A program made the translations under genes and the position numbers. This document shows, in pieces, positions 10,116-61,814 of a DNA stretch of 64,000 bases. The first letter of the stretch is position 1. Each line of letters starts with the position of its first letter. Source of the DNA: an uncultured Ignavibacteriaceae bacterium (GTDB lineage Bacteria; Bacteroidota; Ignavibacteria; UBA10030). A model generated the notes under the pieces. The model was not told the DNA's origin. It ran no database searches and was given only the letters and a program-made list of their open reading frames with translations. The stretch spans positions 314 to 64,313 of the forward strand of contig CAZOMY010000006.1 in assembly GCA_964581115.1 (NCBI GenBank). The letters run 5' to 3'.

Positions 10116-10221
10116 GAATTTTGCACCGCAATGACGCAGCGGCGCGAAGGCAAATGATCAAATCACGTTGCGCCTTCGCGTCTCTGCGGTGTATATCTTC
10201 TCTTTCGATCGAGGTGCTTTC

Positions 10222-34674: not shown

Positions 34675-34900
34675 GGGGGATTCCTAGTGTTGATGAACGT
34701 GGACGGAGTGTCCTTTCAACTGCCGTGCCACAATGGCGGCACGGAACGACCGGGATTCTGAAGGGTCTTTGTGCTCAGCCGCGGAGCGATGCATTCATTC
34801 TCTGTTCTGAGAGGACGAGTTCCAAGATTCGACAAGACCACGACCAGGATCGGAGATCGTCGGCTTGACATTCGGAGAGTACAACCGTACATACTCAGCC

Positions 34901-37307: not shown

Positions 37308-38360
37308 ATGCGATCTACGATCAAGGATGTCGCCGAGCAGGCGAAGGTTTCGATCGCCACCGTTTCGCGGGCCTTCAACGAAGAGGGGAAGGTCCGCGAG
37401 GGAACGCGACAGCGCATCCTCGCCGTGGCGCAGAAGCTGAAGTACACGCCCAACGCCGCGGCACGCAATCTCATCATGAACCGGACCGAGGCGATCGGAT
37501 TGCTGTTGCCCGACCTCCACGGCGAGTTCTTTTCGGAGATCATTCGCGGCGCCGACGAGGCGGCCCAGGAGCGCCGCCACCATCTGATCGTCTCCAGCTC
37601 GCACAACGACCGCTCCGAGATCGAGGCGGCCCTCCGCTTCATGCGAGGGCGCGTCGACGGACTCGTGATCATGTCTCCCCAGATCGAGTCCGACTTGCTT
37701 CTGGCGAACCTCTCGAAGTCCCTGCCCGTCGTCCTCCTCAACTGCCGGCTTGAGAACACGGTTTACGACACGATCACGGTCGACGGCTACGGCGGGTCGC
37801 GCGACATGGTCGGATATCTCATTTCGCAAGGCCACCGGCGGATCGCGATCATCAAAGGCGGCGATAACAACTTTGAGGCCCTGGAACGTCTCCGCGGATA
37901 TCGCGCGGCACTCATTGCGGCCGGCATCCGTCCGGAGCGGCAATTGGAACTCTCGGGCGATTTCACCGAGGCTTCCGGCTACGATGCGGCTCGCCGTCTT
38001 CTGGCGATGCACCCGCATCCGACGGCCGTGTTCGCATCCAATGACTCCATGGCCATCGGAGCCATTGGCGCGTTCCACGAACATGGCATCCGGATCCCTC
38101 AGCAGGTCTCGATGTGCGGGTTCGATGATATTCCGATCGCGAAGTACATCCGCCCGGCCTTGTCAAGCGTCCATGTGCCGATCCACGATATGGGTCGCAT
38201 GGCCGTGAACCGGCTGTTGGACCGGGTCGAAAAAAGGATGCGAAAGCATCCGGCGCACATTCTTGTCCCGACGGGACTCGCCGTTCGCGCCTCCATCCGC
38301 CGGCTGTCGGGATCCGGCGTGCGGGCTTCCACGGTGCGGGCAACGACATCGAAGAAGTAA
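37308..38360 (+). CDS. LacI-family transcriptional regulator
   Basis: 350 aa. N-terminal HTH (TIKDVAEQAKVSIATVSRAFN). Periplasmic-binding-protein-like sugar-binding core with C-terminal FDDIPIAKYIRPALSSVHVP. Confidence 0.9.
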   Translation: MRSTIKDVAEQAKVSIATVSRAFNEEGKVREGTRQRILAVAQKLKYTPNAAARNLIMNRTEAIGLLLPDLHGEFFSEIIRGADEAAQERRHHLIVSSSHNDRSEIEAALRFMRGRVDGLVIMSPQIESDLLLANLSKSLPVVLLNCRLENTVYDTITVDGYGGSRDMVGYLISQGHRRIAIIKGGDNNFEALERLRGYRAALIAAGIRPERQLELSGDFTEASGYDAARRLLAMHPHPTAVFASNDSMAIGAIGAFHEHGIRIPQQVSMCGFDDIPIAKYIRPALSSVHVPIHDMGRMAVNRLLDRVEKRMRKHPAHILVPTGLAVRASIRRLSGSGVRASTVRATTSKK

Positions 38361-38422: not shown

Positions 38423-40384
38423 ATGAATCTCCGTTCACACCTGACGCTGCTGGTTGTCTTGACGGCTGTGCTGACCGCCGCCGTGCTGGGCCAGCCGGTC
38501 CGGAAAGACGCCGTCTGGGCCCGAACGGTCCCGGCCGGTACGATCACGCTCGACGGCATGTTGAATGAAGCCGCGTGGGCGACGGCCGAGTCGGTCGAGG
38601 TCCGATGGGGCAACGTTCACACGGCGCACGAACCGGGCAGCGGCTATCGGGTCGAGCAAGGTACGTCGACCCCGACCGACCCGACGAATGCCATGATCAA
38701 GTTCCTCGTGTCGAGCGACAACAAGATGTACGTCGCCGTCTGGGCGAAGGACAGCTCGATCGGCGGCGGATTGTTCAACAAGTTCGACGGTCTCCTGATG
38801 AACATCCGCGACCGTTCAAAGCCGGACCGCCCCGTTCCGCCGTTTGAGTACTTCTATGGATGGGTGACGGAAGGATGGGCCGACCCGACGACGGGCAATG
38901 TCGGCGCCTCTCCCGGCTTCTTCGGATGGGCCGGCGGGAAGCGGACCGATTCGACCGGCGGAGTGAAAAACGCCGACATCTGGGATGCCGTCACCAAGGT
39001 CTACGGAGTCTCCAACAGCGACACGCTGGCCAACGGCACGCTGACGAGGGATACCGCGTGGGTCACGGAGCTGATGTTCAACCTCACCTTGCGCGGATAC
39101 GACGTCACGCAGCCGAGCGGAGACATCGTGATGTACAACATCTCCATCTACGACGCCGACTGGCAGTGGCCGCTCGACACGGTCAAGTTCGCGGGCAATC
39201 GTACCTGGCTCCAGGGTCCGTGGGGCAATGGCAACGGGCACAATCACCTCCGCATCTTCGCCCGTCCGACGGTCACGCCGACATCGGGCGCCGTACCGGC
39301 CGTGAACCCGGATTTCGTGATCCCGCAAGCAAGCGCCAATCCGACGATCGACGGCAACCTGAGCGACGCCGTCTGGTCGCAGTTCGGCTCGGAGCGTACG
39401 TTGAAGATCAAGTACGGCGATAACGCGCTGCGGAGTTCATACAAGTACACCATGCCCTATCGCAGCGGACAGTACCAGCCGTCCGTGTACGGCGCCAAGC
39501 CCGACGTGCTGGATCCTGCTGAAGCCGACGTCAAGATGTTCTTCAACGGCGACACGCTCTACATCGGAGTCGACGTGAAGGACAACGTCGTCCAATACCG
39601 GCCGGAGTTTGACCGTCAGGACGGCTTCCGGCTGATGATCAAGGACCGGACAAAGCGTGTCGACGGTGAGTACCACCTTGAAGGCTACGAGCTCTACGTT
39701 CGGGTCGATACGAGCGCGAAGGGCTATGCGCTCGACGGTTTTGCGGCGGTGCTCGACGCGGATACCTTCTCCACAACCGCGATGCGGGGAAGCAAGATCC
39801 GCCTGGCCCTGAAGTCCGGGACGACGGTCGATACGGTCGCCGCGACGAATGACAATGGCTACTCCATCGAGATGAAGATCAACCTGCGGGCGCTCGGGTA
39901 TGCCGCAGGCCGCGGCGACGGCATCGTCTATTTCGGCGCTCTGGTGAACGACGGCGATACCTTCGGCAACACCGGCATTCCGCCGTACGGCAATCGTGTC
40001 TGGTACGCGCAAGAAGGCTCCTGGCCTGATGGCCCCGCCTTTGCGTACATGAATCCCAGCGCCACGACGGATGTGGCGGAAGGAGGCACGGCCGTTCCGG
40101 GTGAATTCCGTCTCTACGGCTCGTACCCGAACCCGTTCAACCCTGAAGCAAAGATCGAATTCGCGATTCCAATGCGGTCGAACGTGAGGGTCAACGTGTA
40201 TGACCTGCTTGGACGCATGGTTGACAGTCAGACGCTGACGATGTTGTCGGCCGGGCGCCATGCCCATCTGTTCAACGGCGCTTCGTTGGCTTCGGGTGTC
40301 TACTTCTACCAGGTCCAGTTGCTCGACCTGACGACGAACAACGTCCTCGACATGAAGTCGGGACGGATGCTTCTCGTGAAGTGA
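38423..40384 (+). CDS. Secreted protein with N-terminal CBM9/DOMON-like carbohydrate-binding-like domain and type-A T9SS C-terminal sorting domain
   Basis: 653 aa. Signal peptide MNLRSHLTLLVVLTAVLTAAVLGQP. N-terminal TLDGMLNEAAWATAESVEV is CBM9-like. The C-terminal roughly 90 aa are a classic T9SS CTD (YPNPFNPEAKIEFAIP...VNVYDLLGRMV...GVYFYQVQL). No catalytic motif recognised. Confidence 0.55.
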   Translation: MNLRSHLTLLVVLTAVLTAAVLGQPVRKDAVWARTVPAGTITLDGMLNEAAWATAESVEVRWGNVHTAHEPGSGYRVEQGTSTPTDPTNAMIKFLVSSDNKMYVAVWAKDSSIGGGLFNKFDGLLMNIRDRSKPDRPVPPFEYFYGWVTEGWADPTTGNVGASPGFFGWAGGKRTDSTGGVKNADIWDAVTKVYGVSNSDTLANGTLTRDTAWVTELMFNLTLRGYDVTQPSGDIVMYNISIYDADWQWPLDTVKFAGNRTWLQGPWGNGNGHNHLRIFARPTVTPTSGAVPAVNPDFVIPQASANPTIDGNLSDAVWSQFGSERTLKIKYGDNALRSSYKYTMPYRSGQYQPSVYGAKPDVLDPAEADVKMFFNGDTLYIGVDVKDNVVQYRPEFDRQDGFRLMIKDRTKRVDGEYHLEGYELYVRVDTSAKGYALDGFAAVLDADTFSTTAMRGSKIRLALKSGTTVDTVAATNDNGYSIEMKINLRALGYAAGRGDGIVYFGALVNDGDTFGNTGIPPYGNRVWYAQEGSWPDGPAFAYMNPSATTDVAEGGTAVPGEFRLYGSYPNPFNPEAKIEFAIPMRSNVRVNVYDLLGRMVDSQTLTMLSAGRHAHLFNGASLASGVYFYQVQLLDLTTNNVLDMKSGRMLLVK

Positions 40385-40398
40385 TCGAAGGACCGGGA

Positions 40399-40424
40399 TC
40401 CCTCCCGGCCCCGGTCGGAGGGGG
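40399..40424 (+). terminator. Weak hairpin after the T9SS CBM-like gene
   Basis: CCCTCCCGG-CCCCGGTC-GGAGGGGG stem-loop 15 nt after the stop. No clear U-tract. Confidence 0.25.
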
Positions 40425-40490
40425 CGCCACCACGGCGCTCCCTCCAACGCCGGGGATGCCACGTACCACTCCTCTGCCTCGAGGTGCCTC

Positions 40491-43154
40491 ATGCTCACGG
40501 CTCGCCGACCGTGTCCCTCGCCATTCTTCCTGTCCGCCGTCGTGGCGGTCCTCTTCCTCGGTGCCCCCGCCGCACACGCAGAGACGCGCGGCAAGCTCAC
40601 CGGAACGATCACCGATGCCCGGACGCGAGAGCCGCTCATCGGCGTGAACATCGTGCTCGCCGGCACCGCCATGGGCGCGGCCACGGATCCCGATGGCGTC
40701 TTCCTGATCTTGAACGTGCCCGCCGGAACCTACGAAGTGCGCATCAGCAGCATCGGCTACAGCACCCGCGTGGTACGGGATGTCCGGATCAACGCCGGGC
40801 AGACGACCACGCTGAACGAGGCCCTGACGGAAGAGGTGGTGCAGGGACAGGAAGTGATCGTCGTCGCGACGCGCCCCGTCGTGGACACGCGCCAGACGAG
40901 CGCGGTGAGCATTCTCGACCGGAAGGATATCAGTGCGCTTCCCGTTCAGGAGCTCAACGATATTGTCAACCTGCAGGCCGGCGTCGTCGACGGGCACTTC
41001 CGCGGCGGTCGGGTGGGCGAGGTGCAGTATCAGGTGGACGGCGTTTCGATCAACAACCCCTATGACAACTCCGCCAGCATTCGCATCGATAAATCCATCC
41101 TGCAGGAAGTGCAGGTCGTGAGCGGCACCTTCGACGCTGAATACGGCCAGGCCATGAGCGGCGTCGTGAATGCGGTACTCCGCAGCGGCTCCACCGACCG
41201 CTTTGAGTACAGCGTGGAAATGTTCGGAGGCGACTATACGGGGAGCGTCTCACGCTTTCCCCATATCGACCGGATCAGTCCCGCGGCCATCCAAAGCTAC
41301 CAGTTCAGCCTCAGCGGCCCGACGCCGCTTCCTTCGACGACGTTCCTGCTCAGTGTGCGACGCTACACCGATGACGGATACCTCTACGGTCAACGCCGGT
41401 TCTCGCCGTTCGATACCTCACGGCCCGGGGAAGGGGCGTTCTATCCGACCGGCGACAACGCCCTCGTGCCGATGAGCTTCTTCCGCGAATGGTCGGGTCA
41501 GGCGAAGATCGCCACGAGGATCTCGGGCGACATGCAGCTCAGCTATCAAGCGGTCTTCAACCGGAGCGAGCGCGGGTCCTACAGCTACGGCTGGCGTCTC
41601 AATCCCGACGGCCTCAAACAGCCCCGCAGCCTCGCGCTGGTCCATGGGCTTGACTGGACGCACACTCTTTCGCAAACGATGTTCTACACCTTCAGCCTGA
41701 GGCAGAACTACTTCGACTACAAGGATGTCAAGTACGATGACATCAACGATCCACGCTACTACACCGCCAAAGGTCCCGTCTCCGATGCCAACTATGAGTA
41801 CGGCGCCGTCATCCAGGGCGTTGATCTCGGCAGGTTCATGCAGCGGACGGATTCGTACGTTGCCAAGGGAAGCCTCACCTGGCAGGCTACTCGTATCCAT
41901 CTCCTGAAGGCGGGCTTTGAAGCGCAGGGAGCCGCCATTCAGTTCGGTCCTCCGGGGATCCTCATCGCCAGCACGAATGCGCAGGGCGTGCAGGTGATCA
42001 CGCCGTTCGTCAACCATCCCGAGCAGCCTCGCATTGTGTCGAACCATCCCCTGTGGTTCTCGTCGTTCGTCCAGGACAAGATGGAGTTCACCGACTTACT
42101 TGTGCGCGCCGGCGCCCGGCTTGAATTGTTCCATGCCCGGACGACCATCCCCGGCGATCTTGCGAATCCCGCGAACGCCATCCCCGGCGCTCCGGTCAAG
42201 GTGCCCGTCGGCACAACCATCAAGGCGTCGTTGGCGCCGCGACTCGGGATCTCCTATCCCATCACCGATCTGGCATCCGTGTTCTTCTCGTACGGCCACT
42301 TCTATCAGTATCCCGCGCTGAGCAATCTGTTCGCGAACAACGACTATTCCGTCCTGCGGAATCTGCAGGCGGGCGGCATCAGCTATGGGGTCATGGGCAA
42401 TCCCGACCTCCGTCCCGAACGGACCACGCAATACGAATTCGGATACAAAGGGGCGCTGACCGAGGCCTTCGGACTCGACGTGAGCGTCTACTACAAAGAT
42501 ATCAGGGACCTGTTGGGCGTCGAGTTCGTTTCGACTTACACAGCGGCCGAATACGCGCGGTTCACGAACGTTGATTTCGGGAACGTGGCCGGAGCAACGC
42601 TGGCGCTTGACTATCGGGCCGGCATCCTGAGCGCTTCGCTGGACTACACGTTTCAGACGGCCCTCGGAAACTCGTCCGATCCGCGCGAGACGGCGACTCG
42701 CGCGGCCGCCGGAGAGGACCCGCGGCCGCGTGTGGTGCCGCTGGGTTGGGATCAGCGCCACACGCTCAACGCCGTCCTCGGCCTGAGCGAAGCGGGAAGC
42801 TATTCCGCCACCGTCATCGCCCGTTTCCAGAGCGGCCAGCCCTATACGCCCGTTCTAACGGCCGGGTTCGGCGGAGACATTGAGACGAATTCAGGCAAGA
42901 AATCGGCGTCGGTGATCGTTGACATGCGCACGGAGAAACAGCTTGACCTCTTCGGAGTGCGCTTGACCGTTTTCAGCCGAATCCAGAATCTGTTCGGCGC
43001 CACCTTTTCGAACGGGTTCATCTTTGCCAGCACCGGGTCGCCCGACTACAGCCTCGTTCCCGCGGTCGATCGCAACACCCTGGCCGACCCCAGCCGCTTC
43101 TACGCTCCCCGGCGGATCGAGATCGGTCTTTCCTTCGGCGGTTCTTCGGAGTGA
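40491..43154 (+). CDS. TonB-dependent outer-membrane receptor with N-terminal carboxypeptidase-regulatory-like (CarbopepD_reg) domain; no SusD partner
   Basis: 887 aa. Signal peptide. GKLTGTITDARTREPLIGVNIVL and VPAGTYEVRISSIGY form the CarbopepD_reg domain. Plug domain (DRKDISALPVQELNDIVNLQAGV). 22-strand barrel with a C-terminal aromatic-rich end. The next gene starts 4 nt later. Confidence 0.85.
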   Translation: MLTARRPCPSPFFLSAVVAVLFLGAPAAHAETRGKLTGTITDARTREPLIGVNIVLAGTAMGAATDPDGVFLILNVPAGTYEVRISSIGYSTRVVRDVRINAGQTTTLNEALTEEVVQGQEVIVVATRPVVDTRQTSAVSILDRKDISALPVQELNDIVNLQAGVVDGHFRGGRVGEVQYQVDGVSINNPYDNSASIRIDKSILQEVQVVSGTFDAEYGQAMSGVVNAVLRSGSTDRFEYSVEMFGGDYTGSVSRFPHIDRISPAAIQSYQFSLSGPTPLPSTTFLLSVRRYTDDGYLYGQRRFSPFDTSRPGEGAFYPTGDNALVPMSFFREWSGQAKIATRISGDMQLSYQAVFNRSERGSYSYGWRLNPDGLKQPRSLALVHGLDWTHTLSQTMFYTFSLRQNYFDYKDVKYDDINDPRYYTAKGPVSDANYEYGAVIQGVDLGRFMQRTDSYVAKGSLTWQATRIHLLKAGFEAQGAAIQFGPPGILIASTNAQGVQVITPFVNHPEQPRIVSNHPLWFSSFVQDKMEFTDLLVRAGARLELFHARTTIPGDLANPANAIPGAPVKVPVGTTIKASLAPRLGISYPITDLASVFFSYGHFYQYPALSNLFANNDYSVLRNLQAGGISYGVMGNPDLRPERTTQYEFGYKGALTEAFGLDVSVYYKDIRDLLGVEFVSTYTAAEYARFTNVDFGNVAGATLALDYRAGILSASLDYTFQTALGNSSDPRETATRAAAGEDPRPRVVPLGWDQRHTLNAVLGLSEAGSYSATVIARFQSGQPYTPVLTAGFGGDIETNSGKKSASVIVDMRTEKQLDLFGVRLTVFSRIQNLFGATFSNGFIFASTGSPDYSLVPAVDRNTLADPSRFYAPRRIEIGLSFGGSSE

Positions 43155-43158
43155 CGCT

Positions 43159-46100
43159 ATGAGAACAACACCCCTTGCTCCCTTGTTGTTTGCGTCGCTG
43201 CTGGCCGGTATCCCGGCGGTTGCGCAGTATCGTCCTGTTGTTCCCAAGAGCCTCAGGGGCAATCTTCAGGCGGAACGACTGGGTGTGCACGATGCCAACA
43301 ATATCCGCACATACTTCTACAACTATGGGATGGTCGGCGACTATCCTCCTGATCCGATCGGAGTGGACCTCAGCGTCTTCCACTCGATGGAGGTTCCCAA
43401 GGGGAGCGGACTGAACTACTCCGACGGGGCCACGCCGTATGTGCTGGCGCGTGTTCCGCTCAATGGCGGCGCCGGACAGAAAGAGCTCATGCTGACCGGC
43501 TACCGTGAACGGCAGGCCTCGGAGCCCTTTGGGCGGTGGGTCATGCGTCTGGAGCCACGACCGGGCTACTTCCAGGAAGACCCCACCATCAATCGCGGTC
43601 GGTCTCCGGCGCTCAGCAACGACGCCCGAACGTGGCCCGACCAGTGGCCCGATCGACTTGCCGATCCCGACGATCCGGGATGGTCCGGGTCGTGGAACGG
43701 CTACTTCGGCAAGCGCGCGGCAGCCGATCAAGAGAGCTTCTTCGTCGTCGACGACGATTACTACACAGCGCTCGATTTCTTTCCCGACAGTCGCGATAAC
43801 ACGCGCCGGGGTCTGGGAATGATGATGGAGGTCCGCGGCTTTCAGTGGGCCAACCCCCAGGCGGGCAATGTTGTCTTCTACCACTACGATGTCGTGAACG
43901 AAGGAACCACCGATTACAACGACAACCTCCTGTTCGGCATCTACATGGATTCCGGAGTCGGAGGGTCGTCCATCTCGTGCGACGGTATCGCCGAATCCGA
44001 CGACGATAACGCGTTCTTCGATCGGTCGCTCGGCTTGAACCTGACGTACACCTGGGATTCCAGGGGCCATGGCGTCGGCTTGTCGAGCACCTGCCTGCGC
44101 ACGGGGTATCTGGGATACGCCTACCTTGAGACGCCCGGCAATCCCTTCGACCTCCGCGACAACGACCTCGACGGTATCACCGATGAGAAGCGCGACGGGG
44201 GGCCCGGCACGCTCATCCAGGGCATGTCGAACATCCGCGCCCACGCCCAGGCCAACTATGACTTTGCCGAATTCGAAGCCTACGGCGGCACACTCGAGAA
44301 TCGTCCCGCCTACAACACGGAGTATTGGTGGACCGGCGACGAGGATATGGATTGGGTCGCGGAGTTCGATGATACGGGCGGCGATGGAGTGTTCGGCACC
44401 AATGACACCGGAGAGGAGGACGGCATCCCGACCGCTGGGGAGGCGAATTTCGATCAGAAAGACATTGAGGAATCTGACCAGATCGGCCTGACCGGATTCA
44501 AGATGAATCGCATCCGAGCCGGTGAAGGAAGCCCGACGACGGAGACCGACGGCATCATCTTCTTCGATGATGGCGTCAAGAACTGGCCCAAGCGGCTCTA
44601 CGACCAATTCACCGACCCGACGGAGAGCAATCGATTCGACCCGCCGCTGGCGCTCAATTACAATATCGGCTTCCTGTTCACCTCGGGGACCTTCCGCCTG
44701 CCGGCGGGGAAACAGGAGCGATTCAGTCTGGCCTTGGCCTATGGCGTTGGATTGGCCGAGCTCCGAACGACCGTCCGGATCGTTCAGCGCATCTACACGT
44801 CGAACTACCAGTTCGTCGTCCCTCCCAAACTGCCTGTGCTCACGGCCGAGTCCGGGGACCGACTCGTCAAGTTGACATGGAGCGACGTTTCCGAGCGAAG
44901 CGCCGACCCGGTCACCCGGAAAATGGACTTCGAAGGATACCGGGTCTATCGCGCCACGGACCCGATCTTCATGGACACGAAGACGATCTCGAACGCCCGC
45001 GGGACCGACAGGATGCCGTTCGGATCCCCTCTCATTCAATTCGACCTGAAGAATGAACACGAGGGATACTCTTCGATCACCGTCGACGGGGTGGCGTATT
45101 ACCTCGGCGCGAACACCGGCGTGCCGCACACCTTCATCGACACGACGGTGACGAACGGCGTAACCTACTACTATGCGGTCTGTGCGTATGACCACGGAGA
45201 TGAGGAGCTGGGCTACTACCCGTCGGAGAACGCGATCAACATCTCCCGGACGCCTCGCGGCGGCACGATCCTTCCCCAGAACGTCGTGGAGGTCCGTCCG
45301 AATCCGCGGGCGCTTGGCTTCTCTGCCGGTTCGACGACGGATGTTGCACGTGTTGCCGGCTCGGGCGAAGGGACGGTCGCGGTACGGGTGGTCAACTCGA
45401 ACGATGTCCCTGACGGGCGGCGACTGCAGATCCGGATGCTGACTTCGGCGCCGGAGAACATCCATGCAGACTACTACCAGATGGTCGACAGCATATCGGG
45501 TACGGTCTATATCGAGCGCGGCACCGACTTTGCCGCAACGGGCAACGGTCCCGTGGGAGCGGGCATCTTGCCCCTGGTGAGCACGATCGATACGCCCACG
45601 CCTGATTCGGCGCGTTCCGGCTTCTCCCCGGGCGCTCAAACGAACGTGCGGCTGACCTTCGCCTACATGCCGGTGCTCCCGGTCAATCGACGCCGGGCGG
45701 GTTACCCGAACGACCTTCGATTCGAGTTCTCCAGTGCCGTTGTGGACACCTCGATACCGCTCAGCTTCATTCTGCCGGCCCGGCCGATCAAGTTCCGTGT
45801 CTGGGCGTTGACCCCCGGCGGTTCGCTGCCGTTGAAGGTGGTGTTCCGCGACGGCTCGGGGAGCGCCGACAGCACGTTGAGCTCCCCGAATGATATCTGT
45901 TATGTCGCCACGCCGAACCCGACGGGTGATTCGCTCATGGCAACCTGGAATGTGAAGGTCGATACGGCCGGAGTCCCCGGCTCGATCGTACCCCCGCAAC
46001 CCGGCGATGTCTACAACCTCCTGCTGAGAATGCCGTTTGTCGACGGGGAGGTCTTCTCCTTCTCGACCTCGGGTCAGCGGATCGATCACCAGAGAGCGGC

Positions 46101-46422
46101 CTCAGAAGGGGCCTTCGAACCTTACGTCGTGCCGAATCCTTACGTCGCGGCAGCGATCTTTGAGCCGGAACGGTTCGCCGTCTCCGGCCGCGGGGTTCGG
46201 CGGCTCGAATTCCGCGGTCTGCCCTCGACGTGCACGATCCGCATCTACACTATACGCGGGGAGCTTGTCGAAACGCTGCGGCACGAGGACTCCCTTGACG
46301 GATACGTCGCCTGGAACCTTCGGACGAAGGACAACCTGGATGTGGCGCCGGGGCTCTACCTGTACCACGTCGATGCCGGACCGTTGGGGACGAAGGTCGG
46401 CAAGTTCTCCATCATCAAATAA
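43159..46422 (+). CDS. Large secreted cell-surface protein (FN3-like domain) with type-A T9SS C-terminal sorting domain
   Basis: ORF 43024-46422; ATG at 43159 gives the signal peptide MRTTPLAPLLFASLLAGIPAVAQ. Acidic D-rich calcium-binding-like stretches (DNDLDGITDEKRDGG, DDTGGDGVFGTNDTGEEDG). FN3-like region KLTWSDVSERS...YRVYRATD. The C-terminal roughly 90 aa are a T9SS CTD (VPNPY...IRIYTIRGELV...PGLYLYHV...KFSIIK). Confidence 0.6.
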   Translation: MRTTPLAPLLFASLLAGIPAVAQYRPVVPKSLRGNLQAERLGVHDANNIRTYFYNYGMVGDYPPDPIGVDLSVFHSMEVPKGSGLNYSDGATPYVLARVPLNGGAGQKELMLTGYRERQASEPFGRWVMRLEPRPGYFQEDPTINRGRSPALSNDARTWPDQWPDRLADPDDPGWSGSWNGYFGKRAAADQESFFVVDDDYYTALDFFPDSRDNTRRGLGMMMEVRGFQWANPQAGNVVFYHYDVVNEGTTDYNDNLLFGIYMDSGVGGSSISCDGIAESDDDNAFFDRSLGLNLTYTWDSRGHGVGLSSTCLRTGYLGYAYLETPGNPFDLRDNDLDGITDEKRDGGPGTLIQGMSNIRAHAQANYDFAEFEAYGGTLENRPAYNTEYWWTGDEDMDWVAEFDDTGGDGVFGTNDTGEEDGIPTAGEANFDQKDIEESDQIGLTGFKMNRIRAGEGSPTTETDGIIFFDDGVKNWPKRLYDQFTDPTESNRFDPPLALNYNIGFLFTSGTFRLPAGKQERFSLALAYGVGLAELRTTVRIVQRIYTSNYQFVVPPKLPVLTAESGDRLVKLTWSDVSERSADPVTRKMDFEGYRVYRATDPIFMDTKTISNARGTDRMPFGSPLIQFDLKNEHEGYSSITVDGVAYYLGANTGVPHTFIDTTVTNGVTYYYAVCAYDHGDEELGYYPSENAINISRTPRGGTILPQNVVEVRPNPRALGFSAGSTTDVARVAGSGEGTVAVRVVNSNDVPDGRRLQIRMLTSAPENIHADYYQMVDSISGTVYIERGTDFAATGNGPVGAGILPLVSTIDTPTPDSARSGFSPGAQTNVRLTFAYMPVLPVNRRRAGYPNDLRFEFSSAVVDTSIPLSFILPARPIKFRVWALTPGGSLPLKVVFRDGSGSADSTLSSPNDICYVATPNPTGDSLMATWNVKVDTAGVPGSIVPPQPGDVYNLLLRMPFVDGEVFSFSTSGQRIDHQRAASEGAFEPYVVPNPYVAAAIFEPERFAVSGRGVRRLEFRGLPSTCTIRIYTIRGELVETLRHEDSLDGYVAWNLRTKDNLDVAPGLYLYHVDAGPLGTKVGKFSIIK

Positions 46423-46437
46423 GCGGGGAGGACCACC

Positions 46438-47448
46438 ATGCGATCACATCGACCCTTCGTGATGGTGTCCATGACGCTGTTCGCCATGAGCGTCGCCGCG
46501 GCGCAGACGAACGTTGCGACGACGATCGGCCAGTTCCTGTTGATCGAGCCGAGCGCACGCATCAGCGCCATGGGCAATGCCGGTTCGACGTTCACGGACG
46601 AACCGATGGCGGCGTATTACAATCCGGCCTCGCTCGGGAATCTGCCGACGGCTTCCGCTCAGTTCACGCACGCACCGTGGCTGGGAGGCATCACGTACAA
46701 CTATGCGCTGGCGACGGTGCCGATGGGGACCTCGGCGCTGATGCTGAGCGTGACGTCGCTGCGCTCAGGCGACATCGCCGTGCGAACGGTCCAACAACCC
46801 CTTGGAACCGGCGAGTACTATACCGTCTCGAACATCTCGTTCGGCCTTGGATATGGGCTCCGGGTGACCGATCGGATTGCCGCCGGCGTTCAGGTGTCGT
46901 ATCTTCAGGAAACGATCTGGCACAGCAGCGTAAGCGCCATGGCCGTCAATCTCGGTACTCAGTACCGATTGACGGACGGCGGGGTGACCATCGGAGCCAG
47001 CCTCTCGAACTTCGGCACGCGCGACCAGTACCGTGGGAGAGACCTCCGGGTCCGATACGACCTTGACCCGGAGACGTACGGCGGGAACAGCGCTTTGCCG
47101 GCGGAGCTCTACACCGACCCTTACGGATTGCCGATCCTGTTCCGCGTCGGTCTGTCGCTTCCTGTTTCCGTGGCCGAGGATCACCGGCTGTTGTTCGTTC
47201 TTGACGCGCAGCATCCCAACAACAACACCGAAAGCATCAGCTTCGGCGGCGAGTACACGTACGCCGGCCTGTTTGCCGTTCGAGCCGGCTACCAGAATCT
47301 TTTCGAGCAGGATTCGGAGGTCGGCCTGACGGCCGGCGCCGGCCTGCTGGTCGAAGCGCTCGGCAGCGACCTGAGAATGGACTACGCTTGGACGGAGTTC
47401 GGCCGTCTCGGACACGTCCAACGCATCACGATCGGCTTCTCGTTCTGA
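46438..47448 (+). CDS. PorV/PorQ-family (UPF0164-like) outer-membrane beta-barrel protein
   Basis: 336 aa. Signal peptide. The N-terminal ARISAMGNAGSTFTDEPMAAYYNPASL matches the PorV/PorQ signature (ARA.GMGGAF.A.ADDA.A.YWNPAGL). Alternating beta-strand pattern. C-terminal ITIGFSF is a beta-barrel signal ending in Phe. Confidence 0.5.
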   Translation: MRSHRPFVMVSMTLFAMSVAAAQTNVATTIGQFLLIEPSARISAMGNAGSTFTDEPMAAYYNPASLGNLPTASAQFTHAPWLGGITYNYALATVPMGTSALMLSVTSLRSGDIAVRTVQQPLGTGEYYTVSNISFGLGYGLRVTDRIAAGVQVSYLQETIWHSSVSAMAVNLGTQYRLTDGGVTIGASLSNFGTRDQYRGRDLRVRYDLDPETYGGNSALPAELYTDPYGLPILFRVGLSLPVSVAEDHRLLFVLDAQHPNNNTESISFGGEYTYAGLFAVRAGYQNLFEQDSEVGLTAGAGLLVEALGSDLRMDYAWTEFGRLGHVQRITIGFSF

Positions 47449-47480: not shown

Positions 47481-49898
47481 ATGGCCTCCGATACTCCCGC
47501 ATCTTTCCCGTTCGACAACGGGCTCGGCCGTTTTGGTGATGACGGCTGGACCTACCGCATCGCAACTCCGCGCACTCCGCGTCCCTGGGTCAACGTGGTC
47601 AGCAACGGCACATTCGGGTTTGTGATCTCTCAAGCGGGCGGCGGCTACAGCTGGCGGGAGAACGCACAACTCAACCGGATCACCCGCTGGGAACAGGACC
47701 TCATCAAGGATGAGTGGGGAAAATTCCTTTACCTGCGCGATGCCGACGAGGGCCATGCCTGGTCGGCGGCATGGAAGCCGATGTGCGTCGAGCCGGAAAC
47801 CTATGCCTGTACGCACGGTGTCGGATGGTCGCGGATCGATTCGCGTACGAACGACATCGATTCGTCGTGGACGATGTTCGTTCCGGTCGATGCGCCCGTC
47901 GAGGTCTGGATCGTCCGATTGACGAACCGCTCAGCGAAGATGCGCCGATTGCAGCTCCTGACCTATTTTGAGTGGAATCTCGGAGCGGCCCCCGACTGGC
48001 ACCGCGAGTTCCACCGCTCGTTCATCGAGACCTCATACGACGAAAAGCTTGGAGCGCTGTTCGCGACCAAGCGGCTGTGGGAAGTGCCTTCGGACAAGGG
48101 ACACTGGAACCGGAATTGGGAGTACGTCGCCTTCCATGGCTGCTCGCTTCCGCCGGTGTCCTACGACGCCGACAAGGAATCCTTCCTCGGCATGTATCGC
48201 GATCTCCGCTCGCCGCGGGCAGTGGAGGAGGGGACGCTGGGGCGGAACACGGGGAACTGGCTGGATGCGATCGCCAGCCTGCAGAATGAGGTGACGCTGG
48301 AGCCCGGTGCCGATGTGACGCTCGTGTATACCGTGGGGGCAACGACCTCACGTCGAGAGGCGTCGAAGATCTTGAAAGCCTATAGCGATCCCGAGGTCGC
48401 CCAAGCGTCTCTGAAACGTGTCACGGAACGATGGCGCTCCCTGCTTGGGCGCTTCGCCGTCGAAACGCCGGACGCATCGATGAATACCATGCTCTCACCG
48501 TGGTTGCAGTACCAGGCGATCTCAGGCCGGTTGGAGGGTCGAACCGCTTACTACCAGGTGGGCGGCGCCTACGGATTTCGCGACCAGTTGCAGGACAGTC
48601 AGATCTTCCTTCCGCTCGAACCCGCGCGAACGGCCCAGCAGATACGTCTGCATGCGCGTCACCAGTACAAGGACGGGACGGTCTACCATTGGTGGCACCC
48701 GCTCTCGGAAACGGGTCTTCCCACCGACATGACCGATGATCTCTTGTGGTTGCCGTACCTCGTTGCGCAGTATCTCGACGAAACCGACGACCGATCACTG
48801 CTCAAGGCCCGGGAGCCCTTCCTCGATGAGCCACGGGGCGCCACGATCTATGATCACTCGACCAGGGCTATCGACCGCGTGCTCAAACGGATGAGCCGGC
48901 GCGGTCTTCCGCTGATCGGTGCCGGCGATTGGAACGACGGTCTGAGCGCCGTTGGACTGAAATGGAAGGGCGAATCGATCTGGCTGGGCCAGTTCCTGTA
49001 CGCCGTCCTCACCGCTTTTGCGCCGATCGCAGACCGGGCGCGTGACAGCGCGCGGGCGCGTCGTTACCGCTCGGCGGCCTCTCGGCTGAAGCGGAATCTC
49101 AACCGTCACGGCTGGGACGGCGAATACTACTATGGAGCGACCAAGGACGACGGCGAACGGCTGGGAAGCGCCCGGAACCGCCAAGGGAGGGTGTGGCTGA
49201 ACACGCAAACGTGGGCGATCCTGGCCGATGTGGCCGATCCCAAACGGGCACGGCAGGTCTTCGACATCGTCGAACAGAAGCTTGAGGGAAAGAACGGCAC
49301 GTTACTGCTGACCCCTGCGTACTCCGTGCCCGATCCGGACATAGGATACCTCACCCGTTACGCCGCCGGCATGCGGGAGAATGGGGGTGTGTACACGCAC
49401 GCCGCCACATGGTCGATCCTCGCGGCGGCACGACTGGGCCGCGCTGAAGCGGCCTATCGTCTCTTCCGGAAGATCAATCCCATCCTGCTCGGTTCGAACC
49501 CCCGGGAGTACTGCGCAGAGCCCTACGTGACCCCGGGAAATATCGAGGGACCCGATTCACGATTCTACGGAAAAGGAGGATGGACGTGGTACACCGGTTC
49601 TGCCGCCTGGCTCTTCAGAGCCGGCGTGGAAGGGATCCTCGGCGTCAAGGCGGTTCGAGGTGAACTCGCCGTCGAACCCTGCATCCCTGCTGCCTGGAAG
49701 CAGTATCGCGTTCAAAGGACCTTCCGTGGCGCCGTCTACCGCATCCTGGTGCAGAACCCTGACGGACGCTCGGAGGGGATTCAGCAGGCGTCGGTGGACG
49801 GCAAGCCGCTCACGATCACGCCGGGACAGCGCGCCGTCACCCTGCCGAGGGCGCGCCCCGGATCGACGGTGGATGTCACGATCGTCATTGGACAGTGA
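47481..49898 (+). CDS. Glycoside hydrolase family 94 glycoside phosphorylase (cellobiose/chitobiose/beta-1,2-oligoglucan phosphorylase family), cytoplasmic
   Basis: ORF 47388-49898; ATG at 47481 (MASDTPASFPF). No signal peptide. GH94 architecture with N-terminal beta-sandwich and (alpha/alpha)6 catalytic domain carrying GAGDWNDGL (catalytic Asp region) and YGFRDQLQDSQ. Specificity cannot be assigned from sequence. Confidence 0.75.
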   Translation: MASDTPASFPFDNGLGRFGDDGWTYRIATPRTPRPWVNVVSNGTFGFVISQAGGGYSWRENAQLNRITRWEQDLIKDEWGKFLYLRDADEGHAWSAAWKPMCVEPETYACTHGVGWSRIDSRTNDIDSSWTMFVPVDAPVEVWIVRLTNRSAKMRRLQLLTYFEWNLGAAPDWHREFHRSFIETSYDEKLGALFATKRLWEVPSDKGHWNRNWEYVAFHGCSLPPVSYDADKESFLGMYRDLRSPRAVEEGTLGRNTGNWLDAIASLQNEVTLEPGADVTLVYTVGATTSRREASKILKAYSDPEVAQASLKRVTERWRSLLGRFAVETPDASMNTMLSPWLQYQAISGRLEGRTAYYQVGGAYGFRDQLQDSQIFLPLEPARTAQQIRLHARHQYKDGTVYHWWHPLSETGLPTDMTDDLLWLPYLVAQYLDETDDRSLLKAREPFLDEPRGATIYDHSTRAIDRVLKRMSRRGLPLIGAGDWNDGLSAVGLKWKGESIWLGQFLYAVLTAFAPIADRARDSARARRYRSAASRLKRNLNRHGWDGEYYYGATKDDGERLGSARNRQGRVWLNTQTWAILADVADPKRARQVFDIVEQKLEGKNGTLLLTPAYSVPDPDIGYLTRYAAGMRENGGVYTHAATWSILAAARLGRAEAAYRLFRKINPILLGSNPREYCAEPYVTPGNIEGPDSRFYGKGGWTWYTGSAAWLFRAGVEGILGVKAVRGELAVEPCIPAAWKQYRVQRTFRGAVYRILVQNPDGRSEGIQQASVDGKPLTITPGQRAVTLPRARPGSTVDVTIVIGQ

Positions 49899-49906: not shown

Positions 49907-51253
49907 ATGCGTTCCGTCTGCTTTGCGCTCATCGCCCTTGTCATCGTTGAACCTTCGTCGGCACAACCGCTGGCGTCGATCTCCAGGGACGACAGCCTGT
50001 TTCTGAGGATGCTGCAACGGGAGTCGTTCAAGTTCTTCTGGCATGAGGCCGATCCGTCCACCGGTCTCATCAAGGACCGATCGGCGGACTGGTCGCCCAG
50101 CAGTATCGCCGCGGTCGGATTCGGCCTGACGTCGATCTGCATTGCCGTCGATAATGGCTGGCTTACACGCGCTGAAGCGCGGGACCGAGTGTTGACCACC
50201 GTGCGAACCTTCTGGAACGGACGGCAGGGTCCCGAACAGGAAGGAACGATCGGCTACAAGGGCTTCTTCTATCACTTCATCGACTTGAAGACAGGGAACC
50301 GCGTCTGGAACTGCGAACTGTCGACGGTCGATACAGGGCTGTTGCTCCTGGGGATGCTCGACGCGAAGGCCTACTTCAGCCTCGCTCATCCTGACGAACG
50401 GGAGATCCGTTCCCTCGTGGATTCCATCTACCGACGCATTGACTGGGCTTGGGTCTCGCAACCCGACCCGTCGATCGGCAAGGTGGATTCGACGATCGGC
50501 AACGGATGGTTTCCGGAACGGGGATTCATCCGATGGAGTTGGCAGGGCTATAACGAAGGGCTGTTCCTTTACATCCTGGCGCTCGGGAGCCCCGAGGGGG
50601 CTCTTCCGCGGCATTACTACGACGGATGGCTGAAGACCTACCGCACCGAGACGTGGTATGGGATGTCATTCTTTGCATTCCCGCCGCTGTTCGGCCATCA
50701 CTACGGCCACTGCTGGATCGACTTCCGCAACATTCGGGATGCGAAGAACCGGGAGTCAGGATGGGACTACTTCGAGAACTCCCGTCGCGCGACGCTGGCG
50801 AATCGCGCCTACTGCGCGGAGAATCCACTCGGTCATAAGGGCTACAGCGACAGTCTCTGGGGGCTGACAGCGTGCGACGGACCCGATCTGCCCCCGACGA
50901 AGGGGTATTTCGCCCGCGGAGCCCCCGATCCTGAGATCGATGATGGCACGATCGCTCCGACGGCGGCTGGAGGTTCGATACCGTTCACGCCGCATGAATC
51001 CATCGTTGCTCTAAAGCACATGTACCGGCTCCTGTGCAGCGGCCACGACCGGCGACTGTGGGGACCCTATGGCATGCGCGATGCCTTCAACCTGAGCGTG
51101 AACTGGGTCGCTGCCGACTACCTGGGTATCGATCAGGGACCGATCGTCATCATGATCGAGAATTTCTTCACGCAGAGTGTCTGGAAGCGTTTCAGCGCCA
51201 TCCGGGAAGTGCGGCGCGGACTGGAGCGGGCTGGTTATCGATCGGCGCCGTAA
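49907..51253 (+). CDS. DUF3131 / GH144-like (alpha/alpha)6 glycoside hydrolase ('glucoamylase family protein'), periplasmic
   Basis: ORF 49895-51253; ATG at 49907 is preceded by GAGGGGGG. Signal peptide MRSVCFALIALVIVEPSSAQP. 57% identical paralogue of the next gene. Size and composition fit the DUF3131 family (characterised members are endo-beta-1,2-glucanases). Family call from memory. Confidence 0.5.
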   Translation: MRSVCFALIALVIVEPSSAQPLASISRDDSLFLRMLQRESFKFFWHEADPSTGLIKDRSADWSPSSIAAVGFGLTSICIAVDNGWLTRAEARDRVLTTVRTFWNGRQGPEQEGTIGYKGFFYHFIDLKTGNRVWNCELSTVDTGLLLLGMLDAKAYFSLAHPDEREIRSLVDSIYRRIDWAWVSQPDPSIGKVDSTIGNGWFPERGFIRWSWQGYNEGLFLYILALGSPEGALPRHYYDGWLKTYRTETWYGMSFFAFPPLFGHHYGHCWIDFRNIRDAKNRESGWDYFENSRRATLANRAYCAENPLGHKGYSDSLWGLTACDGPDLPPTKGYFARGAPDPEIDDGTIAPTAAGGSIPFTPHESIVALKHMYRLLCSGHDRRLWGPYGMRDAFNLSVNWVAADYLGIDQGPIVIMIENFFTQSVWKRFSAIREVRRGLERAGYRSAP

Positions 51254-51326
51254 TGGCGCCCGCGCGGCAAGACTCGACGAGGCGCGGCTGAACGAAGGCC
51301 GCGCTTCGCTGTTCTGAAAGGACACG

Positions 51327-52970
51327 ATGATGCTTCGACAGATGGTGCCGTTGCTACGAGGCCTGGCGTTGTCGGTGGGATATGTCGTGCTGAGCTGGAT
51401 GCACGCCGATCTCTACGCGCAGCCGCTGGCCGCGATCAGCGCTGAAGACAGCACATTCTTGCGAATGGTGCAGCGTAAAGCGTTCGATTTTTTCTGGATC
51501 GAGGCTAACCCTTCGAACGGTCTTATCCGAGACCGCAGTCAGAGCGGATCGCCGAGCAGCATCGCCTCGGTCGGATTCGGCCTGTCGAGCATCTGTGTCG
51601 CCTCCGACTACGGCTGGGTGAGCCGTGCCGCCGCGGCCGACCGGGTGCGGACGACCTTACGCACGTTCTGGAATGGACCGCAAGGCTACGCGGCCCAAGG
51701 CATGATCGGGCGCCTCGGCTTCTTCTATCATTTCCTCAAGATGGACACGGCGGTGCGGGATTGGAACTGTGAGCTCTCGTCCATCGATACAGCGCTATTG
51801 CTGGCCGGCATCATCCATGCACAGCAGTACTTCGACGGGACCGATCCGGTCGAACAGGAGGTCCGCGCTCTGGCCGATTCGATATATCGGCGCGCCGACT
51901 TTGAGCGCTTCCGGAATTTCGGCACCACGCTGAACATGGGTTGGCATCCTGAGACCGGATGGCTCAACGCCTGGTGGGTCGGCTACAACGAAGCAATGAT
52001 CCTCTACATCCTCGGTCTTGGCTCGCCGACGCATCCGATCACGCCCGACCTGTGGGACAATTGGACGGGCGGCTATCATTTCGCGTCGTACTACGGCCAG
52101 ACCTACGTCGTGTTCCCGCCGCTCTTCGGACATCAATACTCTCACTGTTGGGTCGACTTCCGAGGCATCCGTGACGCCAAGATGGCCTCGTACGGGCTGG
52201 ACTATTTTGAGAACTCACGACGGGCGACCTTGGCGCAGCAGGCGTACTGTACGGCGAACCCGCTTGGACATGCCGCCTACAGCGACAGCATCTGGGGCAT
52301 TACGGCCTGCGACGGACCATCGGTCCTGGGCGGCTACAAGGCACGCGGCGCGCCGCCGGCTGAGAACGACGACGGCACGCTGGCTCCGACCGCCGCCGGG
52401 GGATCGATCGCCTTCACGCCCGAAGCGTCTCTGCGTGCGCTGAAGACGATGTACCGACAATACTGCGCGGGTCCCGAAACGCGGCTGTGGGGACCGTATG
52501 GTTTTCGCGACGCGTTCAACCCGAAACTCGATTGGTTCGACCTTGACTACATCGGCATCGACCAGGGGCCGATCGTGCTGATGATCGAGAATCTCTTCAC
52601 GCAGAAGGTCTGGTCAACCTTCATGTCGAGCCCGTACATCCAGACCGGATTGCAGCGTGCAGGATTCACCCCCGTCACGAATGCCCACGACGAGGGCGCG
52701 GTGCCGGAGAGGTTCCGGCTGGAGCAGAACTATCCGAATCCATTCAATCCTCAAACCACGGTTCGCTTCGAGCTTTCGGAAGCAGCCGACGTGCGCCTCG
52801 AGGTGTTCGACCTGTTGGGCCGCAGCATCCGAACGATGGATCTCGGCCGCCGCAACCCGGGTTCGCATCTGGAATTTCTGAACGGTGCAGACATGACCTC
52901 GGGCGTGTACCTGTATCGATTGATCGCGGGCCGTTATCAAGCGACCCGGACAATGGTACTGGCGCGATGA
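51327..52970 (+). CDS. DUF3131 / GH144-like (alpha/alpha)6 glycoside hydrolase with type-A T9SS C-terminal sorting domain (cell-surface/secreted)
   Basis: 547 aa. Signal peptide. The catalytic region is paralogous to 49907-51253 (FFWIEANPSNGLIRDRS, WNCELSSIDTALL, HCWVDFRGIRDAK, GPIVLMIEN). The C-terminal roughly 85 aa are a T9SS CTD (YPNPFNPQTTVRFEL...VFDLLGRSI...GVYLYRLIAG). Confidence 0.5.
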   Translation: MMLRQMVPLLRGLALSVGYVVLSWMHADLYAQPLAAISAEDSTFLRMVQRKAFDFFWIEANPSNGLIRDRSQSGSPSSIASVGFGLSSICVASDYGWVSRAAAADRVRTTLRTFWNGPQGYAAQGMIGRLGFFYHFLKMDTAVRDWNCELSSIDTALLLAGIIHAQQYFDGTDPVEQEVRALADSIYRRADFERFRNFGTTLNMGWHPETGWLNAWWVGYNEAMILYILGLGSPTHPITPDLWDNWTGGYHFASYYGQTYVVFPPLFGHQYSHCWVDFRGIRDAKMASYGLDYFENSRRATLAQQAYCTANPLGHAAYSDSIWGITACDGPSVLGGYKARGAPPAENDDGTLAPTAAGGSIAFTPEASLRALKTMYRQYCAGPETRLWGPYGFRDAFNPKLDWFDLDYIGIDQGPIVLMIENLFTQKVWSTFMSSPYIQTGLQRAGFTPVTNAHDEGAVPERFRLEQNYPNPFNPQTTVRFELSEAADVRLEVFDLLGRSIRTMDLGRRNPGSHLEFLNGADMTSGVYLYRLIAGRYQATRTMVLAR

Positions 52971-58600: not shown

Positions 58601-58656
58601 GGCTCTGTCCGGAGGATCCCTGTTTGCTTGATCCGATCACCCAACCTGAGTCCGCT

Positions 58657-61812: not shown

Positions 61813-61814
61813 TC

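Follow-up and report, generated by a model that had tools for sequence, protein, structure and literature searches.

SusC/SusD pairs are the marker by which glycan-utilization loci are found and counted, and the databases of polysaccharide utilization loci (PULs) rest on them. Among the bacteria that matter for polymer degradation in soils, sediments, hot springs and sludge are the lineages Ignavibacteria, Calditrichota, KSB1, Eisenbacteria, Gemmatimonadota, Latescibacterota and Fibrobacterota. Here we analyze a 64-kb window of DNA (64,000 nt of contig CAZOMY010000006.1, from an uncultured Ignavibacteriaceae bacterium; the window means this whole stretch), in which three adjacent genes encode a TonB-dependent receptor (TBDR), a large secreted protein of an unnamed family, which we call BIG, and an outer-membrane β-barrel of the PorV/PorQ family. 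The window is 62% GC, and its sequence is identical to two metagenome contigs of the JGI. The original prediction for this trio, made from the sequence, was that a type IX secretion system (T9SS) cargo protein, delivered by its own PorV-like barrel, might stand in for SusD beside the receptor.

The T9SS attachment complex of Porphyromonas gingivalis offers the closest precedent for such an arrangement, in that an unremoved C-terminal domain (CTD) holds a T9SS substrate on a 14-strand barrel of the PorV family. PorZ keeps its CTD to bind PorQ, the CTD of PorU stays on PorV, and the cognate PorV-like barrels PorP/SprF are thought to shield the CTDs of specific substrates (PMC10202324). For the glycan, the closest described locus is the SGL cluster of Ignavibacterium album (IALB_1177-1187), which encodes glycoside hydrolase family 144 (GH144) and GH94 enzymes and an ATP-binding cassette (ABC) importer with a sophoro-oligosaccharide-binding protein; the introduction of the same paper also places a GH3 enzyme there (PMC8861115). 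That paper names only "a TonB-dependent transporter" in the cluster, which it says lacks biochemical support, and it gives no role to the large protein or to the PorV-like barrel. The module set out below is not described in PMC8861115, PMC3534657, PMC5317091 or PMC6987092, nor in the full-text literature searched, which misses most subscription journals. What appears to be new is a glycan uptake locus centered on a TonB-dependent transporter with a previously uncharacterized partner pair, BIG and the barrel.

Gene Order and Conservation of the Trio

The open reading frame (ORF) of the TBDR stops at TGA 43152-43154, and the next ATG, at 43159, follows after 4 nt as read from the sequence. BIG ends with TAA at 46420-46422, and the 15 nt that separate it from the ATG of the PorV-like gene at 46438, gcggggaggaccacc, contain a GGAGG ribosome-binding site. 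The PorV-like gene in turn stops at TGA 47446-47448, 32 nt before the ATG of the GH94 gene at 47481. These gaps are exactly those first reported; the length of 1132 aa given with them, however, belongs to a TTG-extended ORF from 43024 that overlaps the TBDR, while the ATG that yields the 4-nt gap gives 1087 aa, which is also the length in the JGI gene calls on the two identical contigs. All genes of the cluster at 34865-61812 lie on the + strand (Table 1). Terminator-like sites number 16, as compared to 11.5 ± 3.2 in shuffles, and none falls within the gaps. Because the gaps are short, the strand is the same and there is no convincing terminator, we infer that the TBDR, BIG, PorV-like and GH94 genes are co-transcribed. 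The 106-nt spacer upstream of the TBDR gene (40385-40490), which follows the gene for a CBM9-like protein with a CTD, holds inverted repeats rich in GC (ccctcc...ggaggg and ggggcgcc...ggcgctcc), with no T-run; these could be an attenuator or a processing site that parts the first gene from the trio.

A genome scan with one genome per GTDB species reveals at least 534 BIG loci, and synteny was read from the best 80, for which the taxon names are the labels of the records. The labels are Ignavibacteria, Melioribacteraceae, Caldithrix, KSB1, Eisenbacteria, Gemmatimonadetes, Latescibacterota, Krumholzibacteriia, Zhuqueibacterota, Kryptoniota, Fibrobacter and Rhodothermales. We treat these 80 loci as orthologues since all are of the GH144 type. 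In essentially all of them, tblastn with the window proteins recovers the order LacI, CBM9/CTD protein, TBDR, BIG, PorV-like, (GH94), GH144. The TBDR is located directly 5' of BIG in each of the 65 loci with enough flank, the PorV-like gene directly 3' of BIG in 77 of 77 orthologous loci, and the median estimated gaps are ∼30-40 nt. A CBM9/CTD homologue lies directly 5' of the TBDR in nearly all orthologous loci and is thus a fourth conserved member of the module. Identities to the window proteins are 55-62% for BIG (77% in one partial match), 46-62% for the TBDR, 45-59% for the barrel (67% in one locus) and ∼31-52% for the CBM9/CTD protein.

Generality was examined by searching with a profile built from distant BIG representatives and inspecting six paralogues. 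All six paralogous loci, in which BIG has fallen to ∼33% identity, keep the order TBDR (or outer-membrane barrel), BIG, PorV-like, with a CBM/CTD protein adjoining. The neighboring genes differ: GH13-CTD, three GH3, GH5 and an esterase in Rosettibacter firmus (L087); an ABC importer and GH130 in a Calditrichaeota metagenome-assembled genome (MAG; L088); an ABC importer and a GH63-like protein in a JGI metagenome contig (L089); GH2-CTD, GH16-CTD, GH3 and GH5-CBM6-CTD in an Ignavibacteria MAG (L090); two GH130 and GH2 in a Calditrichia MAG (L091); and LacI, an 803-aa barrel and a CTD protein in an ENA metagenome scaffold (L092). In L087-L089 the three components have diverged together, to 33-36% (TBDR), 33-34% (BIG) and 37-40% (PorV-like) identity by tblastn. 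Since the trio is kept beside differing enzymes, it, or really the four-gene unit, is a generic core of carbohydrate-active enzyme (CAZyme) clusters in these lineages. The co-conservation of receptor, cargo and barrel that had been proposed as a check is therefore seen in orthologous and paralogous loci alike, and what had been treated as a local oddity is instead a very widespread module.

The breadth of the family is also evident from protein searches. Against 1.84 billion cluster representatives, HMMER places 3746 50%-identity clusters in the BIG family at E ≤ 1e-3 and 538 at E ≤ 1e-30. The window orthogroup corresponds to about one full-length cluster (P0121, 53%), which is followed by many paralogous subfamilies with 33-44% identity and lengths of 1000-1600 aa. 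In a word-indexed search, the number of homologues scored exceeds 2243 out of 8000 candidates. The 120 best in the list, all without a Pfam domain, are full-length proteins of 57-71% identity; those named by their source are all "hypothetical", and the few with a named organism are from MAGs labeled KSB1, Calditrichaeota, Ignavibacteriaceae, Eisenbacteria, Zhuqueibacterota and "Bacteroidetes".

Domain Architecture of BIG

A Pfam scan finds no domain in BIG, the NCBIfam scan gives a sole, sub-threshold match to the PorZ C-terminus (NF052228, E 0.003), and the family profile, run against all PDB sequences, finds only a marginal Fn3 match (3mpc, an Fn3-like protein, E 0.13). The signal peptide that had been noted on the protein is indeed seen: it is MRTTPLAPLLFASLLAGIPAVA, cleaved before Q, of the signal-peptidase-I type and without a lipobox Cys. 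The signal peptide ends at AVA↓QYRP and the first Cys is residue 274, and BIG is therefore not a lipoprotein as a SusD would be.

The first AlphaFold2 (AF2) model, made with 37 orthologues (∼60% identity), resolved the C-terminal half, left residues 19-550 at pLDDT < 50 and gave generic multi-Ig matches in Foldseek. Paralogues were then added via the profile search and residues 22-720 were re-modeled with 140 sequences, which resulted in a pLDDT of 89.2 and a pTM of 0.88. The models are all-β, with a supersandwich, an FN3-like domain, Ig-like sandwiches and the CTD. Structure matches liken the supersandwich to the non-catalytic N-domain of GH15/GH65/GH94 enzymes, and neither an (α/α)6 nor a TIM barrel is present in the models, so that the search for a catalytic fold ended in predicted folds of the binding type, which are carbohydrate-associated and non-catalytic. 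The resemblance to these N-domains and to aldose-1-epimerases has its bounds, as identity is only ∼10%, no catalytic barrel is attached and BIG carries a large acidic insert. Of the features of an aldose-1-epimerase, BIG has the supersandwich fold and lacks a conserved His pair and Glu. No His is invariant in the core in the 140-sequence alignment, as judged from alignment columns without structural superposition; the His/His/Glu chemistry of mutarotases is thus taken not to be conserved, and mutarotase activity of BIG was rejected on this ground.

The FN3-like module of the original prediction is recovered as an AF2 β-sandwich with Foldseek matches to FN3 pairs (probability 0.96-0.98). The proposed Ca-binding-like acidic repeats survive in part: the motif is there, as one canonical DxDxDGxxD at 334 plus further D-rich loops, but it sits in a single insert of ∼125 aa rather than in repeats. 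The segments LExPGN..DxxDNDxDG, DxDxDW, DDxGxDG and GEPNFDxTDxDESDQIGLT are kept across BIG paralogues, and the D-rich loops are plausibly Ca2+ sites.

In hhalign, 328 BIG C-termini align as a profile with 143 ordinary type-A CTDs, drawn from the CBM9 and GH144 proteins that the same loci encode, over 81 columns with a probability of 97.5% and an E-value of 5.7e-12. By this comparison the BIG CTD is homologous to type-A CTDs, and the earlier assignment holds as homology, although the domain lies below the Pfam and TIGR04183 thresholds. Relative to ordinary type-A CTDs it contains a family-specific conserved insertion of ∼14 residues after the PNPY motif. The AF2 model renders it as a confident β-sandwich, and the best Foldseek match of the full BIG model in the PDB is PorZ (5m11).

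Conservation is distributed unevenly over the protein. Identities among orthologues and paralogues, respectively, are 68.4% and 35.1% for the N-terminal core, 61.6% and 42.5% for the FN3-like domain, 41.7% and 22.5% for residues 706-985, the lowest of the domains, and 74.5% and 52.8% for the CTD, the highest. Mean pairwise identity is 56% for the BIG CTD and 37% for ordinary CTDs of the same loci. No other domain of BIG is so constrained, as would be expected of a permanent docking domain and not of a signal that is removed and thrown away. We propose that residues ∼706-985 are the specificity-determining part.

The Receptor and the Barrel

The TBDR is built from a CarboxypepD_reg-like N-terminal extension, a plug and a 22-strand-type barrel. 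It scores 78.1 bits against the SusC/RagA model TIGR04056, for which the cutoff is 368.25, and the match is limited to residues 35-160; its RagA match in the PDB is likewise confined to the N-terminal domain. By these scores the receptor is not a member of the SusC/RagA family. Neither BIG nor any of the ∼40 major ORFs that were scanned in the 64-kb window has a Pfam or NCBIfam match to SusD/RagB, in agreement with the initial observation that the locus has no such protein. Under the strict (PULDB) definition the locus would not count as a PUL, since CAZymes and a TBDR are present but susD is absent and the TBDR is not of the SusC family.

The barrel matches NF033709 with 183.6 bits (cutoff 90) over residues 28-336, which upholds the PorV-like assignment. 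Its scores against the equivalog models are 75.6 bits for PorQ (NF033711, cutoff 220) and 69.7 bits for PorV (NF033710, cutoff 250). On the basis of these values it is a PorV/PorQ-family member and the orthologue of neither. The PDB holds no sequence match to it, and a weak Toluene_X/FadL-type Pfam signal is found (E 0.0035). BamG, the PorV-like subunit of the β-barrel assembly machinery of Bacteroidota, was considered and ruled out at 21 bits against a cutoff of 250.

The Surrounding β-1,2-Glucan Cluster

Judged by its enzymes (Table 1), the locus is a β-1,2-glucan cluster, with LacI, GH3, GH94, two GH144, GH2 and an ABC importer. This set fits the β-1,2-glucan (sophoro-oligosaccharide) cluster of I. 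album, and the GH94 enzyme is, in that functional context, probably a cytoplasmic 1,2-β-oligoglucan phosphorylase (PMC8861115). The CBM9-like protein matches PF06452 with an E-value of 1.3e-6, and its CTD passes the cutoffs of both PF18962 (31.2 bits) and TIGR04183 (29.2 bits); it is a candidate for a glycan-binding protein of the cell surface. Signal peptides are carried by the TBDR, BIG and the barrel, by the GH3, CBM9 and F5/8 proteins and by the two GH144 proteins; the GH94 and GH2 proteins have none.

Table 1. Features of the cluster around the trio, with the predicted domains of BIG
Feature	Position (nt)	Strand	Evidence or remark
GH3 BglX-type β-glucosidase, signal peptide	34865-37159	+	NF011678, 791.8 bits
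LacI-family regulator	37308-38360	+	Pfam LacI and Peripla_BP_3; homologue heads most related loci with enough flank
Protein with CBM9-like domain and type-A T9SS CTD, 653 aa, signal peptide	38423-40384	+	
TonB-dependent receptor (TBDR), 887 aa	40491-43154	+	PF13715, PF07715, PF00593
BIG, secreted protein of unnamed family, 1087 aa (gene including stop)	43159-46422	+	
BIG signal peptide, residues 1-23	43159-43227	+	cleavage AVA↓Q; AQ conserved in family consensus
BIG N-terminal core, residues ∼24-550, galactose-mutarotase-like β-supersandwich with helical elements (predicted)	43228-44808	+	
BIG acidic insert, residues 321-445, 24.8% D/E	44119-44493	+	DNDLDGITD at 334
BIG FN3-like β-sandwich, residues ∼556-705	44824-45273	+	AF2 strands; Foldseek
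BIG variable β-sandwich region, residues ∼706-985	45274-46113	+	pLDDT ∼85-95 (first model)
BIG type-A-like T9SS CTD, residues 986-1087	46114-46419	+	hhalign; divergent, unusually conserved
PorV/PorQ-family outer-membrane β-barrel, 336 aa	46438-47448	+	NF033709; PF19572, 27.1 bits
GH94 phosphorylase without signal peptide	47481-49898	+	PF17167, PF06165
GH144-type (PF10091) β-1,2-glucanase homologue, signal peptide, without CTD (periplasmic)	49907-51253	+	
GH144-type β-1,2-glucanase homologue with type-A T9SS CTD (surface or secreted)	51327-52970	+	PF10091, PF18962, TIGR04183 31.9 bits
GH2-like protein, ABC sugar-binding lipoprotein and two permeases (inner-membrane import)	52967-58600	+	
F5/8-type-C protein, 1071 aa, secreted	58597-61812	+	

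Several features of the neighborhood deserve mention in their own right. The tandem GH144-type paralogues (49907-52970, + strand) are 56-58% identical, and the pair is kept in many related loci; because only the second copy has a CTD, the pair suggests a division of labor between one surface and one periplasmic β-1,2-glucanase. The F5/8 protein (58597-61812) resembles a known family, F5/8 type C, over just ∼100 residues. Its homologues, with 34-44% identity, recur in β-1,2-glucan loci of other genomes (L003, L006, L009, L012, L045, L054, L065, L069, L072, L075 and L085), and it may be an uncharacterized enzyme or binding protein of the β-1,2-glucan pathway. The 1127-aa ORF at 58429-61812 had been a candidate for a second BIG copy and was ruled out, as BLASTP shows no similarity; it is this F5/8-type-C protein. 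A PpiC/SurA-like rotamase gene (61551-63659, + strand) follows the ABC permeases, and a rotamase-like gene occupies the same position in the paralogous locus L089 (17291-18817), a hint that the outer-membrane proteins of the module have a periplasmic chaperone of their own. Cleavage directly before Gln is predicted for most secreted proteins of 38423-61812 (AVA↓Q, AA↓Q, SA↓Q, YA↓Q, LG↓Q, RA↓Q), a pattern that matches the N-terminal Gln/pyroglutamate rule of Bacteroidota. Finally, a hexuronate/pectin-type catabolic cluster at 162-12655 (+ strand) encodes a UxaE-like epimerase, DUF4861, an MFS transporter, SDR, 6PGD, a 2-hydroxyacid dehydrogenase, a LarA-like protein, a PfkB kinase, KduI and UxaC; it is unrelated to the trio.

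A Proposed Outer-Membrane Glycan-Uptake Module

We propose, with a probability only a little better than even (about 55%), that the four genes of 38423-47448 encode an outer-membrane glycan-uptake module in which BIG is docked through a retained CTD. What the analysis shows directly is the order and spacing of the genes, the families to which they belong, the predicted folds, the homology of the CTD, the pattern of conservation, and a strict synteny that holds across relatives labeled as many different phyla and beside different CAZyme sets. The trio may be the counterpart in these bacteria of the SusC/SusD glycan-capture pair. The module would serve the surrounding β-1,2-glucan catabolic cluster. 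BIG would be exported by Sec and then taken over the outer membrane by the T9SS, a system that we take the organism to use because ordinary T9SS cargo is encoded in the same locus. Unlike such cargo, BIG would keep its CTD, which would dock permanently on the co-encoded PorV/PorQ-family barrel, as PorZ does on PorQ and PorU on PorV, and docking would set BIG next to the TBDR. The supersandwich/FN3 core could be where BIG meets its conserved partners and might also offer a generic sugar site; residues ∼706-985 would supply substrate specificity. Binding and cleavage of the polymer at the surface would fall to the CBM9-like protein and the CTD-bearing GH144, and the oligosaccharides freed by the latter would be captured and passed to the TBDR for import. 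The periplasmic GH144 and the GH3 enzyme would trim the imported oligosaccharides, which the ABC system would take up and GH94 would phosphorolyze in the cytoplasm. We suggest docking because of the invariable adjacency of BIG and the barrel, their co-divergence and the analogy to PorZ-PorQ and PorU-PorV; the dedicated PorV-family partner that was first predicted would fit that same precedent (PMC10202324).

A bolder form of the proposal is tentative, and we would lean against it at present. Here the TBDR, BIG and the private PorV-family barrel would be a physical tripartite machine, with BIG, delivered by the T9SS and docked through its retained CTD, as the substrate-capturing lid or arm of a non-SusC transporter. 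It would be the main, perhaps ancestral, SusD-independent route of glycan import in the non-Bacteroidia lineages of the Fibrobacteres-Chlorobi-Bacteroidetes (FCB) superphylum, with specificity held in one swappable β-sandwich region.

A number of observations weigh against the proposed module. We infer each of the steps from export by the T9SS and retention of the CTD to the docking of BIG on the barrel, its contact with the TBDR and its binding of glycans, and T9SS core genes of the organism are not seen in the 64-kb window. The BIG CTD has no match to PF18962 or TIGR04183 at E ≤ 0.01 and so fails the curated thresholds. BIG is conserved far more than SusD or surface glycan-binding proteins are, which argues for an undefined machine-like role, and the invariant acidic residues of its core could be catalytic rather than Ca2+-binding. 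The role of primary glycan binder could equally well belong to the CBM9-like CTD protein, which could also be the true client of the PorV-like barrel. In L092 the 803-aa barrel (1726-4137) has no CarboxypepD_reg, Plug or TonB_dep_Rec Pfam match, only a weak one to OMP_b-brl_4, and could be a divergent or degenerate transporter partner. The term "substitute" for SusD is itself in question. In the xylan locus of Rhodothermus marinus (Rmar_1067-1078), LacI, two CBM-GH proteins with Por CTDs and the TBDR Rmar_1070 are followed by a hypothetical protein with a Por CTD, Rmar_1071, a further hypothetical protein and then a true SusC/SusD pair (Table 1 of PMC6987092). Going by this published gene table rather than by sequence, the locus is probably the same module coexisting with SusCD, and "parallel system" may be the more accurate term. 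One SusCDE set has also been reported for Melioribacter roseus (PMC3534657). In view of these two reports we call the module SusD-independent, which is not to say that these bacteria lack SusD. The genomic side of the original prediction (no SusD in the locus, binding-type folds, synteny) passes, and none of the findings named in advance as telling against it was made; its functional steps share the conditional standing of ours.

Among the competing explanations, the one we rate highest, although unlikely, is that BIG is ordinary T9SS cargo, its CTD cleaved by PorU, and is then attached to anionic lipopolysaccharide or released, serving as a free-standing glycan-binding protein of the surface, with the barrel acting, for example, as a shuttle for the other CTD proteins of the locus or as a FadL-like channel. 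This would account for the homology of the BIG CTD to cleavable type-A CTDs and for the weak Toluene_X/FadL-type signal in the barrel, and two other proteins of the locus with canonical CTDs also need handling. Yet the CTD is the most conserved part of BIG, far above the classic CTDs of the same loci, and contains the family-specific insertion; the barrel gene always comes right after BIG (77/77 and 6/6) and co-diverges with it in the three paralogous loci compared; and known cognate barrel/cargo pairs are co-encoded or act on retained CTDs (PMC10202324). The conservation of BIG, which equals or exceeds that of the GH genes of the locus, could instead point to an enzyme, given an N-terminal core that is highly conserved with many D/E/W residues invariant across paralogues. 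To the idea that BIG is a new glycan-active catalytic family, with surface catalysis by acidic supersandwich residues and import of the products by the TBDR, we assign a slightly smaller chance. Its best structure matches are non-catalytic N-domains of GH15, GH94 and GH65 with no catalytic barrel after them, the supersandwich lacks an invariant His in 140 sequences, and the acidic insert carries a Ca2+-loop motif. Moreover, one core is used in loci for β-1,2-glucan, β-1,3/1,4-glucan and mannan, and a single catalytic specificity is hard to reconcile with glycans that differ so in their chemistry.

High conservation would also suit a machine component, and BIG and the barrel might then be a locus-dedicated secretion or attachment accessory, PorZ/PorQ-like in function as in architecture, that delivers or anchors the CTD-bearing CBM protein and the glycanases near the TBDR without binding substrate itself. 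PorZ is both the best PDB match of the full BIG model and its only NCBIfam match, and in each module the TBDR has one or more canonical CTD proteins as neighbors. We nevertheless consider this the least probable of the explanations: PorZ consists of two β-propellers where BIG has supersandwich, FN3 and Ig-like domains, and the similarity is limited to the Ig/CTD part with low TM-scores. A substrate-independent device would need no region that varies with the type of locus, as residues 706-985 do, and would not require one copy per CAZyme cluster.

Were the docked glycan-uptake module to prove correct, the glycan loci of these lineages could be detected and typed by a new marker, a family of ∼3,700 50%-identity clusters with no name and no Pfam model. 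The T9SS would gain a new role in building a nutrient-import complex besides the secretion of enzymes, and the retained CTD on a cognate PorV-like barrel, so far known from parts of the secretion machine, would reach hundreds of catabolic loci. The finding extends to thousands of loci with labels of about a dozen phyla, and the hypothesis is open to direct tests in cultured organisms that carry such clusters or are reported to do so (I. album and R. firmus, and possibly M. roseus and R. marinus).

Comparison with Known Systems

Orthologues of the window locus are found in Ignavibacterium (L083 and L085); the window comes from another, uncultured organism with 62% GC. With SprB/SprF and other type-B CTD cargo of Flavobacterium johnsoniae, the trio shares a dedicated PorV-/PorP-like barrel gene adjoining that of a large cargo; there, however, the cargo proteins are gliding adhesins with type-B CTDs, and no TBDR or CAZyme context is present. 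The likeness to PorZ-PorQ and PorU-PorV is of another sort, as the BIG C-terminus matches PorZ and the barrel belongs to the PorV/PorQ family. BIG departs from them in its passenger domains, which are unrelated to the PorZ propellers or the PorU protease, the barrel scores below both equivalog cutoffs, and the two are encoded with a TBDR in catabolic loci, in multiple copies across locus types.

The parallels to SusC/SusD (RagA/RagB) lie in the organization of the locus. In both, a TBDR with a carboxypeptidase-regulatory-like N-terminal extension is encoded within a few nucleotides of a large surface protein, inside a cluster with a regulator and CAZymes, with one copy per glycan-specific cluster and paralogues beside other CAZyme sets. 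BIG occupies the position of a SusD, directly 3' of its TonB-dependent transporter after the 4-nt gap. The components themselves are different. The predicted BIG fold is all-β (supersandwich, FN3, Ig-like, CTD) rather than helical and tetratricopeptide repeat-like, BIG is not a lipoprotein and has a T9SS-type CTD and its own PorV-family barrel, and the receptor fails the SusC/RagA model (78 versus 368 bits). BIG is also far more conserved than SusD, with the core and the CTD conserved and only residues ∼706-985 varying.

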